From the NCBI GenBank assembly GCA_030595795.1, contig JAUVCH010000004.1, forward strand, positions 4,502-68,501: 64,000 bases of DNA, read 5' to 3'. Positions 6,129-7,342 of this stretch are shown here, one piece after another (positions within the stretch are counted from its first letter, which is position 1; each line of letters opens with the position of its first letter). The notes beneath the pieces were generated by a model that saw only the letters and a program-made list of their open reading frames with translations, did no database searches and was not told the origin of the DNA. The DNA is from Gammaproteobacteria bacterium (GTDB taxonomy: Bacteria > Pseudomonadota > Gammaproteobacteria > GCA-001735895). Both the position numbers and the translations under genes were made by a program.

Positions 6129-6686
6129 ATGCCCGAGAACATTGATTACAGATTTTTGAGTGATCTCGAAGGAGGTAGTAGAACTACCGGTTATGTTCCC
6201 GCAGTTGGTATAAGTAAAAGCGGAGTCACCATCGCTACAGGATTCGATCTTGGCCAGCGTAGTGAAAATGATCTTAAATCTTTAAAGCTGGATGCTTTTC
6301 TTGTAGCGAAGTTAAAACCTTACTTAGGAACCAAGGGTACAAATGCCCAAGCTTTAATAAAGAAAACGCCCCTTACTATCACGTTGATTCAGGCACAGGC
6401 TATTGATAAAGCAGTGAAATCAGCACATGTTACTCAGTTAAAATTAAAATATGATACTGCTGTCGGAAATAAAAAGAAGTTCATAGATTTGCCTCCACAA
6501 GCTCAAACCGTAATAACATCGGTTTCATTTCAATATGGTGCAGGTTTGAATATTAGAACTCCTACATTCTGGAAAGCTGTTACTTCACAGGATTGGCCTG
6601 AAGCCATAAAGTTGCTAAAAACTTTTGGCGATTCATACCCTACAAGAAGAAAAAAAGAAGCGGCCTTAATGGAGAAAATTAAATGA
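6129..6686 (+). CDS. T4-lysozyme-like (GH24 / pesticin C-terminal-type) muramidase with no signal peptide; putative antibacterial effector or phage-derived lysozyme
   Basis: It aligns by eye to T4 lysozyme: catalytic Glu in …FLSDLEGG…, the Thr26-equivalent loop …SGVTIATGFDLG…, and the C-terminal lobe …ITSVSFQYGAGLNIRTPTFWKAVTSQDWPEAI… (compare [31 protein letters not shown]). There is a good SD (aaggaa) upstream. Local GC is low (about 38-40%). Confidence 0.7.
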   Translation: MPENIDYRFLSDLEGGSRTTGYVPAVGISKSGVTIATGFDLGQRSENDLKSLKLDAFLVAKLKPYLGTKGTNAQALIKKTPLTITLIQAQAIDKAVKSAHVTQLKLKYDTAVGNKKKFIDLPPQAQTVITSVSFQYGAGLNIRTPTFWKAVTSQDWPEAIKLLKTFGDSYPTRRKKEAALMEKIK

Positions 6687-7342
6687 AAGCTATAGGTAGC
6701 TTTTCTATTATATGTACCTTTATTTTAGCTGGATGTGCTGGTATGAATTATATCGATGCACCATACATTCAAAACGAAAATCTGTCCAAGTCATATAAAA
6801 AAATTGGCGCTTCATTCATTGAAACACGCGCGAAACTCTTGTTTAGCGGAGGAAATTTCGCCACAGATTGTAAAACTTATATCGACTTAATCTCTAAATA
6901 CGACGTAGAGGAGACTATTCACAACCAAATGGTCAAAAGTGAATATCTAGTTTGTGATGCACTTAATATTCTGTCAGATTCTTCAGGAATTTCTAATGAA
7001 ACTGTAAGTAATTCAAATATGGGGGAAGAGTTGCTATTCAAATTAGATATTCGATCATTTCCTTCTTCGTTAAGTAGAGCAGGCAATGAGAAAGCACATA
7101 CACTTAAAAAATTATTTCCAGGACATTCTTCTTATACCGATAATATAGCCAAGCTAATTACTGAAGATTGGTCTTTTATTATTGAAGTTGTTGCAGTGGC
7201 CAGGATTAATAATAATTCATATCCTGACTGGATTGTTTGGATTTCAGATGAATCTATAGTCGGGAATTACCGAGGATATTCAACACTCATCGTATACGAC
7301 CCAGGACAGCAAGACACTTTTATCGCCACTACATACCCCTAA
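6683..7342 (+). CDS. Lipoprotein; putative cognate immunity protein for the upstream muramidase
   Basis: Its ATG overlaps the stop of the lysozyme gene (ATGA coupling). Signal peptide with lipobox LAGC|AG. It shares the low-GC composition. The effector/immunity architecture is inferred, not demonstrated. Confidence 0.6.
   Translation: MKAIGSFSIICTFILAGCAGMNYIDAPYIQNENLSKSYKKIGASFIETRAKLLFSGGNFATDCKTYIDLISKYDVEETIHNQMVKSEYLVCDALNILSDSSGISNETVSNSNMGEELLFKLDIRSFPSSLSRAGNEKAHTLKKLFPGHSSYTDNIAKLITEDWSFIIEVVAVARINNNSYPDWIVWISDESIVGNYRGYSTLIVYDPGQQDTFIATTYP

Follow-up and report, generated by a model that had tools for sequence, protein, structure and literature searches.

A Stand-Alone Pesticin-Family Lysozyme and Its Overlapping Lipoprotein Gene: A Probable Toxin/Immunity Pair in a Gammaproteobacterium

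The window described here is a stretch of 64,000 nucleotides from a gammaproteobacterial genome assembly (GCA_030595795.1, contig JAUVCH010000004.1, positions 4,502 to 68,501). Two overlapping genes on its plus strand encode a lysozyme of 185 amino acids (6129-6686) and a lipoprotein of 219 amino acids (6683-7342); the coordinates of both open reading frames (ORFs) are exact. The two proteins are probably an effector and its immunity protein, that is, a presumed toxin and the protein presumed to neutralise it. Delivery of the lysozyme by a type VI secretion system (T6SS) belongs to the full proposal and is favoured with less assurance. An original prediction, made from the letters of the window, had seen here an effector with an immunity lipoprotein rather than a phage endolysin. 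That view is supported by the membership of the lysozyme in the pesticin family, by a domain of the lipoprotein that is probably related to the pesticin immunity protein Pim, by the linkage of the two genes, and by the lack of phage genes around them in the contexts that were annotated.

The lysozyme would be made in the cytoplasm, where it would be harmless. Because it has neither an export signal nor an uptake domain, it needs a delivery machine. As a small cargo of ~20 kDa it could enter the Hcp tube of a T6SS and be injected into Gram-negative neighbours, whose peptidoglycan it would attack by cutting the glycan strands. The translationally coupled lipoprotein would be exported to the periplasm of the producer, and there its Pim-like C-terminal domain would bind and block toxin arriving from kin. 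The cassette would spread horizontally as a unit. In the organism of the window, toxicity, neutralisation by binding, and dependence on Hcp and the T6SS are all presumed.

A Lysozyme of the Pesticin Family

The 185-residue protein matches the Pfam family Pesticin (PF16754), which is the C-terminal muramidase domain of pesticin, a bacteriocin of Yersinia pestis. The match has an E-value of 1e-46 and a score of 159 bits (cut-off 25.8), and pairs residues 4-156 with positions 1-155 of the 156 in the profile. When PDB chains are searched with phmmer, the sequences of the pesticin crystal structures match at E=3e-17 with 30% identity. The alignment takes in pesticin residues ~167-349 only, and nothing precedes the lysozyme domain. 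As had been predicted, there is neither a signal peptide nor an N-terminal delivery domain; this is a single-domain protein of ~20 kDa that starts at the lysozyme domain.

The same relationship is seen in the fold. For an AlphaFold2 model built with 34 homologs (predicted local distance difference test, pLDDT, 81), the top PDB matches found by Foldseek are 11 pesticin chains, with template modelling (TM) scores of 0.69-0.78 and E-values of 5e-7 to 8e-6. After these come GH24 endolysins of phages and then T4 lysozyme, with TM scores of 0.4-0.47. The protein had first been called T4-lysozyme-like and likened to the Tge effectors. The former description holds in a narrower form, as the pesticin family specifically (PF16754, TM up to 0.78). 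Membership in Tge1 (Tse3) or Tge2 was rejected, the only matches being to pesticin and GH24 endolysins. Neither Tse3 nor Tge2, whose structures are in the PDB, was matched by Foldseek or by phmmer against all PDB chains at E<=10, where pesticin alone appeared among lysozyme-type proteins. What remains in common with Tse3 and the Tge effectors is the class of activity, that of a muramidase.

Mutation of the residues E178, T201, and D207 inactivates pesticin. In the alignment they correspond to E14 (6168-6170), T34 (6228-6230), and D40 (6246-6248) of the lysozyme, which are invariant in 34 close homologs as well as in the phage, plasmid, and pesticin sequences. The catalytic glutamate that had been claimed thus exists and lies at residue 14, and the "Thr loop" that had been pointed out, SGVTIATGFDLG, contains both T34 and D40. 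Muramidase activity has been demonstrated for pesticin, TssI2, and VgrG3cp (PMC9620997, PMC9927483). The 185-residue protein is a domain-only muramidase of the pesticin family, with its activity predicted from this resemblance.

Relatives are numerous. A word-indexed search gave 651 matches, and the best 120 are all ~185 residues long and 63-85% identical to the window protein; they come from gamma- and betaproteobacteria and from assorted metagenome bins. Some homologs have already been named "pesticin C-terminus-like muramidase" by NCBI. Searches of NCBIfam with the lysozyme and with the lipoprotein gave no match.

A Lipoprotein with a Pim-Like Domain

The partner protein consists of a signal peptide and two domains, all on the plus strand. 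Its N-terminus, MKAIGSFSIICTFILAGC, carries a lipobox, LAGC, ending at Cys18 (signal peptide at 6683-6736, read directly from the sequence). The lipobox and the periplasmic location had both been part of the original prediction, and the signal at Cys18 agrees with them. Cys18 is conserved in at least 90% of the family, and copies from Comamonadaceae have a cleavable signal of the AxA type in place of the lipobox.

The signal is followed by a helical domain (~residues 28-110; 6764-7012), delimited from the secondary structure of the model and from alignments. Specific to this family, it includes the SEYLxCDAL motif, which is invariant, and two conserved cysteines, C63 and C91; nearly every family member has two cysteines in its mature part. 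The C-terminal domain (residues 114-207; 7022-7303), delimited with hhalign, is a Pim-like beta domain with the invariant motif LDxRSFPSSL. The AlphaFold2 model of the whole protein has a pLDDT of 88 and a predicted TM score (pTM) of 0.83.

With a threshold of E<=1e-3, an exhaustive profile search found 342 representative clusters of this family; of the 150 best listed, nearly all are ~220 residues long. Pfam has no model for the family.

A relation to Pim can be traced through a family of short proteins found in Vibrio and Aliivibrio. Separately built profiles of the lipoprotein family, of the short family, and of bona fide Pfam Pim were compared with hhalign. The lipoprotein family matches the short family over residues 114-207 with a probability of 98.0% (E=2.5e-13), and the short family matches Pim over 123 columns with a probability of 97.8% (E=8e-13). 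In addition, the hidden Markov model of the lipoprotein family, used alone, matches an Aliivibrio protein of 129 residues at E=1e-6. The shared motif can also be recognised by eye as LDxRSFPSSL in the lipoprotein, LDITSFNSSL in the Aliivibrio protein, and LELNTFGNSL in Pim of Y. pestis.

The short genes stand where immunity genes would be expected. Encoding 127-129 residues, they directly follow genes for effectors with PG_binding and Pesticin domains. For instance, the Aliivibrio gene lies downstream of a gene for a 739-residue toxin with LysM, PG_binding, and Pesticin domains, on a plasmid of Aliivibrio salmonicida. In Vibrio spartinae, a gene for a PG_binding and Pesticin effector comes directly after a VgrG gene and is followed by a short Pim-like gene.

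Because of the strong profile matches by way of the short family, the C-terminal half of the lipoprotein probably is a divergent immunity domain of the Pim superfamily, an assignment made by profile comparison. The N-terminal helical half is concluded to be an addition specific to this family. The Pim-like relation suggested in the original prediction is in this way recovered at the level of the C-terminal domain.

Two other routes to Pim were set aside. A search with an alignment that contained Pim retrieved Pim proteins, and was discounted, the query profile having included Pim itself; the family-against-family comparisons replaced it. Matches of 142-190 residues were rejected as intermediates, since they are truncated gene calls of the lipoprotein family itself.

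Some members of the family have unusual lengths. In Acidovorax-type homologs (P0364, P0365, P0368, and P0370), the hydrophobic heptad LLAFGFW is inserted after a conserved HTLKT motif in a variable number of tandem copies (alignment columns ~104-125); this could be a repeat prone to slippage, or an artefact of assembly. Three proteins, P0248 (418 residues), P0281 (421 residues), and P0297 (435 residues), have about double the usual length, and the lipoprotein family matches their C-terminal half only (~200-435). They could be fusions of lysozyme and partner, or gene calls merged across the overlap of 4 nucleotides.

The V. spartinae locus is also of interest for its surroundings (FSSB01000001.1, 4836-14628). 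This VgrG island holds the PG_binding and Pesticin effector as a split gene product of 400 residues, the Pim-like gene of 127 residues, a truncated Phage_lysozyme fragment, small ORFs, a second partial VgrG, and immunity-type genes with PoNi domains. It appears to be a graveyard of effectors and immunity proteins, or a hotspot of their exchange.

Conservation of the Pair

The two genes are linked wherever they were looked for on chromosomes. The loci fetched were 11 from genomes, 12 from metagenomes, and 14 from exact-protein look-ups, and represent ~20 independent lineages. In every one of the chromosomal loci (~30), the lysozyme gene is followed at once by a gene of the lipoprotein family in the same orientation, so the linkage elsewhere that the immunity reading would call for is found throughout. 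All 14 independent loci keep a stop/start overlap, ATGA or GTGA, and in all 14 the partner carries an export signal, either a lipobox or a signal peptide of the cleavable kind.

The lysozymes have a mean pairwise identity of 72%, across classes of bacteria, and the partners one of 40%. Divergence of the lysozyme and divergence of its partner are correlated (r=0.81).

An example of a pair that has lost its lysozyme can be found in Acidovorax citrulli (Paracidovorax citrulli DSM 17060, NZ_FNEY01000005.1, 8001-8918). Here the gene after hcp is a lysozyme pseudogene: its start is lost, a frameshift scrambles the catalytic loop, there is an in-frame stop, and the sequence is deleted past ~residue 70. 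The partner gene (8250-8918) is intact, and it is present on at least 37 contigs. An intact partner beside a dead lysozyme is the pattern of a retained immunity gene, and the A. citrulli partner looks like one that was kept after the effector was lost.

Genomic Contexts and Delivery

The T6SS-cargo interpretation is backed by relatives in which the pair stands beside hcp. The main T6SS cluster closes with the pair as its final operon in Paracidovorax avenae, P. oryzae, P. konjaci, Acidovorax sacchari, and a number of metagenome assemblies of Comamonadaceae. The genes are arranged as TssL-TssK-TssJ-PppA-Fha-x-PpkA, followed by the divergent hcp, lysozyme, and partner genes, and then by unrelated genes. 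The lysozymes next to hcp are 70-73% identical to the window protein.

A second association is seen in one metagenomic lineage, in contigs from JGI and ENA (L025, 7711-9672; L026, 314-2275). Directly upstream of the pair lies a module made up of a gene for a Tse2-family ADP-ribosyltransferase toxin of 179 residues (Pfam 30.8 bits, cut-off 26.6) and, after it, four tandem paralogous genes for 88 residues that belong to no family. Possibly the four form an immunity-gene array. The Tse2-type module is another effector/immunity-type module of the kind carried by Hcp.

Small effectors, Tse2 among them, travel in the lumen of Hcp, which is ~40-45 Å wide (PMC13323088). The lysozyme, a single domain of 185 residues without a signal, is of a size compatible with it.

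Base composition tells the copies apart. Orphan pairs (in the window and six other lineages) have a guanine-plus-cytosine (GC) content 8-16 points below that of their flanks, and T6SS-embedded pairs one only ~4 points below. The larger deficit of the orphan copies points to their repeated recent horizontal acquisition. The cassette in the window was acquired horizontally as a two-gene unit.

Acidovorax sp. HMWF029 and A. kalamii (8001-9265) have the pair away from the T6SS cluster, with a GC content 13 points below the flanks and a partner protein that has an insertion and is longer at the N-terminus. This copy seems to have been acquired independently and not inherited from the hcp-linked one. 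A megablast search of the Paracidovorax hcp-linked pair against plasmids gave no match.

A number of observations weigh against the proposal, some against the pairing of toxin and immunity protein and others against delivery by Hcp. As to the former, the lysozyme is unusually conserved for a toxin in an arms race, given its mean identity of 72%. Compared directly, the lipoprotein family and Pim are matched by hhalign with a probability of only 62% (E=7.5e-5, 81 columns). The direct Pfam Pim match (PF16765) of the lipoprotein, over residues 89-170, scores 16.3 bits (cut-off 24; E=0.011), and such a sub-threshold match is given by only 1 of 35 family members. Comparison of the lipoprotein model with the PDB found no solved relative, and in particular no immunity protein or lysozyme inhibitor. 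The literature searched holds no report of toxicity, binding, or secretion for this subfamily of lysozymes.

As to delivery, all loci other than those with hcp or the Tse2-type module, the window included, are bare two-gene insertions at unrelated housekeeping sites, such as beside gatB, mnmE near oriC, efp, or a BrnTA toxin-antitoxin pair. The hcp linkage comes essentially from one lineage, the Comamonadaceae, and may therefore reflect a single insertion event. The 64-kb window has no T6SS genes, either in tblastn searches with Hcp, VgrG, TssJ, TssK, Fha, and PpkA or in Pfam searches of its large ORFs. This agrees with the earlier statement that vgrG and hcp are missing from it, so that Hcp delivery in its genome is presumed.

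Comparison with Known Toxins and Immunity Proteins

The closest characterised systems are TssI2/TsiI2 of Vibrio fluvialis and VgrG3cp/TsiV3cp of Vibrio cholerae E1, which are T6SS effectors with a pesticin domain and their periplasmic immunity proteins (PMC9620997, PMC9927483). They share with the window pair the Pfam Pesticin catalytic domain and its essential Glu, Thr, and Asp. Their toxins act in the periplasm and, as in the window, the immunity gene lies directly downstream and encodes an export signal. However, TssI2 and VgrG3cp are C-terminal extensions of VgrG spikes, ~1000 residues long with a PG-binding domain, whereas the window lysozyme stands alone with 185 residues. The T6SS-linked stand-alone copies also follow hcp and not vgrG, a position that implies a cargo of the tube lumen.

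TsiI2, which confers immunity to the VgrG-pesticin effector TssI2, is a periplasmic protein of 127 residues that has been validated experimentally (PMC9620997). Going by its size and context alone, it presumably belongs to the short family of 127-129 residues, and the V. spartinae effector and its short neighbour represent a split form of the TssI2/TsiI2 pair. The window immunity protein differs from TsiI2 in being a lipoprotein, in its length of 219 residues, and in its extra N-terminal helical domain.

Pesticin and Pim, encoded on the Y. pestis plasmid pPCP1, have a homologous lysozyme domain and an immunity protein that is probably a distant homolog, with a common LxLxxFxxSL motif. Pesticin itself is a colicin-like bacteriocin of 357 residues with a TonB box and a FyuA-binding domain, and the window protein has neither. 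Because it has no uptake domains, the window lysozyme is not a bacteriocin in the sense of pesticin. The pim gene is convergent and encodes a non-lipoprotein of 131-141 residues; the window partner, in contrast, is a lipoprotein encoded on the same strand as the lysozyme and lies below the Pfam Pim threshold.

The pesticin layout recurs on plasmid pKP2_7 of Klebsiella pneumoniae (L031, 4575-6131) and ~20 similar plasmids of ~55 kb. They encode a pesticin C-terminus-like muramidase of 330 residues, with a convergent gene for 141 residues just downstream, as in the arrangement of pst and pim, and they also carry phage-like genes (Icd-like, Bro-N).

Cargo of the Hcp lumen, such as Tse1/Tsi1, Tse3/Tsi3, and the cytoplasmic Tse2/Tsi2 of the Pseudomonas aeruginosa H1-T6SS, or the Tge effectors, resembles the window pair in consisting of a small single-domain effector without a signal peptide and a downstream immunity gene. 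Among relatives of the pair the likeness extends to position, after hcp in Comamonadaceae and beside the Tse2-family toxin of L025. The immunity proteins differ, since the fold of the window partner is unlike any solved chain.

Alternative Explanations

The alternative that survives best is unlikely. It keeps a toxin/immunity pair and dispenses with the T6SS. The lysozyme would leave through lysis of the producer, in outer-membrane vesicles, or by another injection device; or the cassette would be a defence led by the lipoprotein, kept mainly since this protein guards against the pesticin-type toxins of others, while the lysozyme gene is a passenger. In keeping with this alternative, T6SS genes are missing within 10 kb of the pair at most loci, the one in the window among them. 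The repeated recent transfers suggest a cassette that works in many backgrounds, and A. citrulli keeps the immunity gene only. The cassette also occurs in bins labelled Nitrospirota and Holosporales, where T6SSs are not expected to be common, although the taxonomic labels of bins of metagenome-assembled genomes are unreliable. Yet a bare lysozyme of 20 kDa cannot pass the Gram-negative outer membrane unaided, and pesticin requires receptor-binding and translocation domains that are absent here. That the lysozyme is strictly conserved in an intact and catalytically competent form argues for its use, and the sole machinery found beside the pair is a T6SS or another T6SS-type effector.

A bolder form of this idea is considered improbable. 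The cassette would be an autonomous, highly transferable module of competition that needs no T6SS, its lysozyme leaving the cell and entering rivals by an undescribed route. The N-terminal domain of the lipoprotein might then serve export or delivery, and not immunity alone. If true, this would explain the high conservation, the many recent acquisitions, and the usual distance from secretion genes.

The effector/immunity interpretation has also to be set against an origin in phages, which is very improbable. Here the pair would be the remnant of a phage lysis module, with the lysozyme as endolysin and the lipoprotein as a spanin-like or superinfection-exclusion protein. Phages do carry related enzymes: the lysozyme family matches phrog_24780 at E=1e-51, and 28 phage records contain pesticin-domain proteins that stand alone. 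These proteins, such as those of the Vibrio phage VBM1 type and of pelagiphages, have the same domain and catalytic residues and a length of ~175-181 residues, and behind the VBM1 gene come small ORFs, among them one with weak matches to Rz-like spanins (E=1.7e-4). They are, however, only 41-48% identical, compared with 63-85% within the chromosomal clade, and are set in lysis or virion modules. A gene of the lipoprotein family is absent from all phage loci with a pesticin-domain gene. The phage relatives belong to a separate clade and have other partners, so the match to phrog_24780 is no ground for calling the window gene an endolysin.

The lipoprotein is equally hard to place in a phage. 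It has two domains and 219 residues, a search of PHROG with it gave no match, and o-spanins are typically far smaller. The pair is kept as exactly two genes at many unrelated insertion sites. Nine chromosomal contexts annotated with Pfam show no gene for a holin, a spanin, an integrase, or a phage structural protein within 10 kb on either side, and no holin or spanin was found in the window. The original prediction had reported none beside the pair, which now extends from the islet to related loci, where adjacent prophage genes would have spoken for an endolysin.

In pelagiphages the pesticin domain is part of a virion protein. In Pelagibacter phage Bylgja and its relatives (L014, 3995-5854), it forms the N-terminal 150 residues of a 619-residue protein encoded among genes for tail and internal virion proteins. 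This suggests an enzyme borne by the virion that pierces the cell wall rather than an endolysin.

Least probable of all is a housekeeping enzyme that remodels the cell's own peptidoglycan under a periplasmic regulator or inhibitor: the partner is periplasmic, the enzyme a muramidase, and both are under strong purifying selection, but an enzyme without an export signal cannot reach its own cell wall, its gene is dispensable in A. citrulli, the distribution is patchy with horizontal acquisition and deviant GC content, and the relatives are toxins with immunity proteins.

Significance

In a survey of 473 proteins with a pesticin domain, 66% consisted of this domain only, and they were not pursued in that study (PMC9620997). 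In the literature searched, neither a domain-only lysozyme paired with a lipoprotein of ~220 residues nor the hcp-adjacent copy of Acidovorax and Paracidovorax was found described. The pesticin warhead is known; what is new is its stand-alone format of delivery, Hcp-linked or orphan, and an enlarged, lipidated immunity protein of two domains. One large, conserved domain-only clade (the 651 matches) travels with a previously unclassified family of ~220-residue lipoproteins that bears a cryptic Pim-like domain. Two large families of "hypothetical" proteins thus receive an assignment that can be tested.

The pair occupies the slot of an hcp effector in the T6SS of Comamonadaceae, a group that includes crop pathogens; in plant-pathogenic Paracidovorax it offers a candidate for a muramidase loaded into Hcp. 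As a compact set of lysozyme and inhibitor, it might also be of use in enzybiotic engineering. No concept is overturned. A known family of weapons is extended, in a way that a specialist would find plausible rather than surprising.

The Islet and Its Surroundings

The stop codon of the lysozyme gene (TGA, 6684-6686) and the start codon of the lipoprotein gene (ATG, 6683-6685) share the sequence ATGA at 6683-6686 on the plus strand, as the original prediction had stated. Sequences resembling a Shine-Dalgarno site precede both genes on this strand, each 8 nucleotides 5' of the start codon: AAGGA at 6116-6120 before the lysozyme and GGAG at 6671-6674 before the lipoprotein. All of these can be read directly from the sequence.

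Both genes lie in an islet, without strand, at ~5900-7500 (limits approximate). It had been described as AT-rich relative to its flanks, and the measurements agree: the GC content of the gene pair is 36.7%, compared with 50.1% for the 5-kb flanks, sliding windows over the islet give 0.34-0.41, and those of 400 nucleotides within 6.0-7.4 kb give 0.34-0.39 against ~0.48-0.53 on either side. On one flank lies a gene of the metallo-beta-lactamase fold on the minus strand (4845-5897), and on the other a YdjM-family gene on the plus strand (7524-8522). The neighbours of the pair in the window are ordinary metabolic and housekeeping genes.

The islet has no tRNA and no integrase, and the repeats that flank it are short and at chance level. 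Rfam gave no match at E<=1 on either strand of the islet, and scans of the islet for promoters and terminators returned counts equal to those expected from shuffled sequence, with nothing above chance.

Elsewhere in the window, two plus-strand genes are unusual amid its otherwise housekeeping content. The first (51306-54242) encodes a protein of 978 residues with repeated Big_9/cadherin-like domains. Just downstream of it, the second (55353-56339) encodes a protein of 328 residues that consists almost entirely of ankyrin repeats (E=5e-37).

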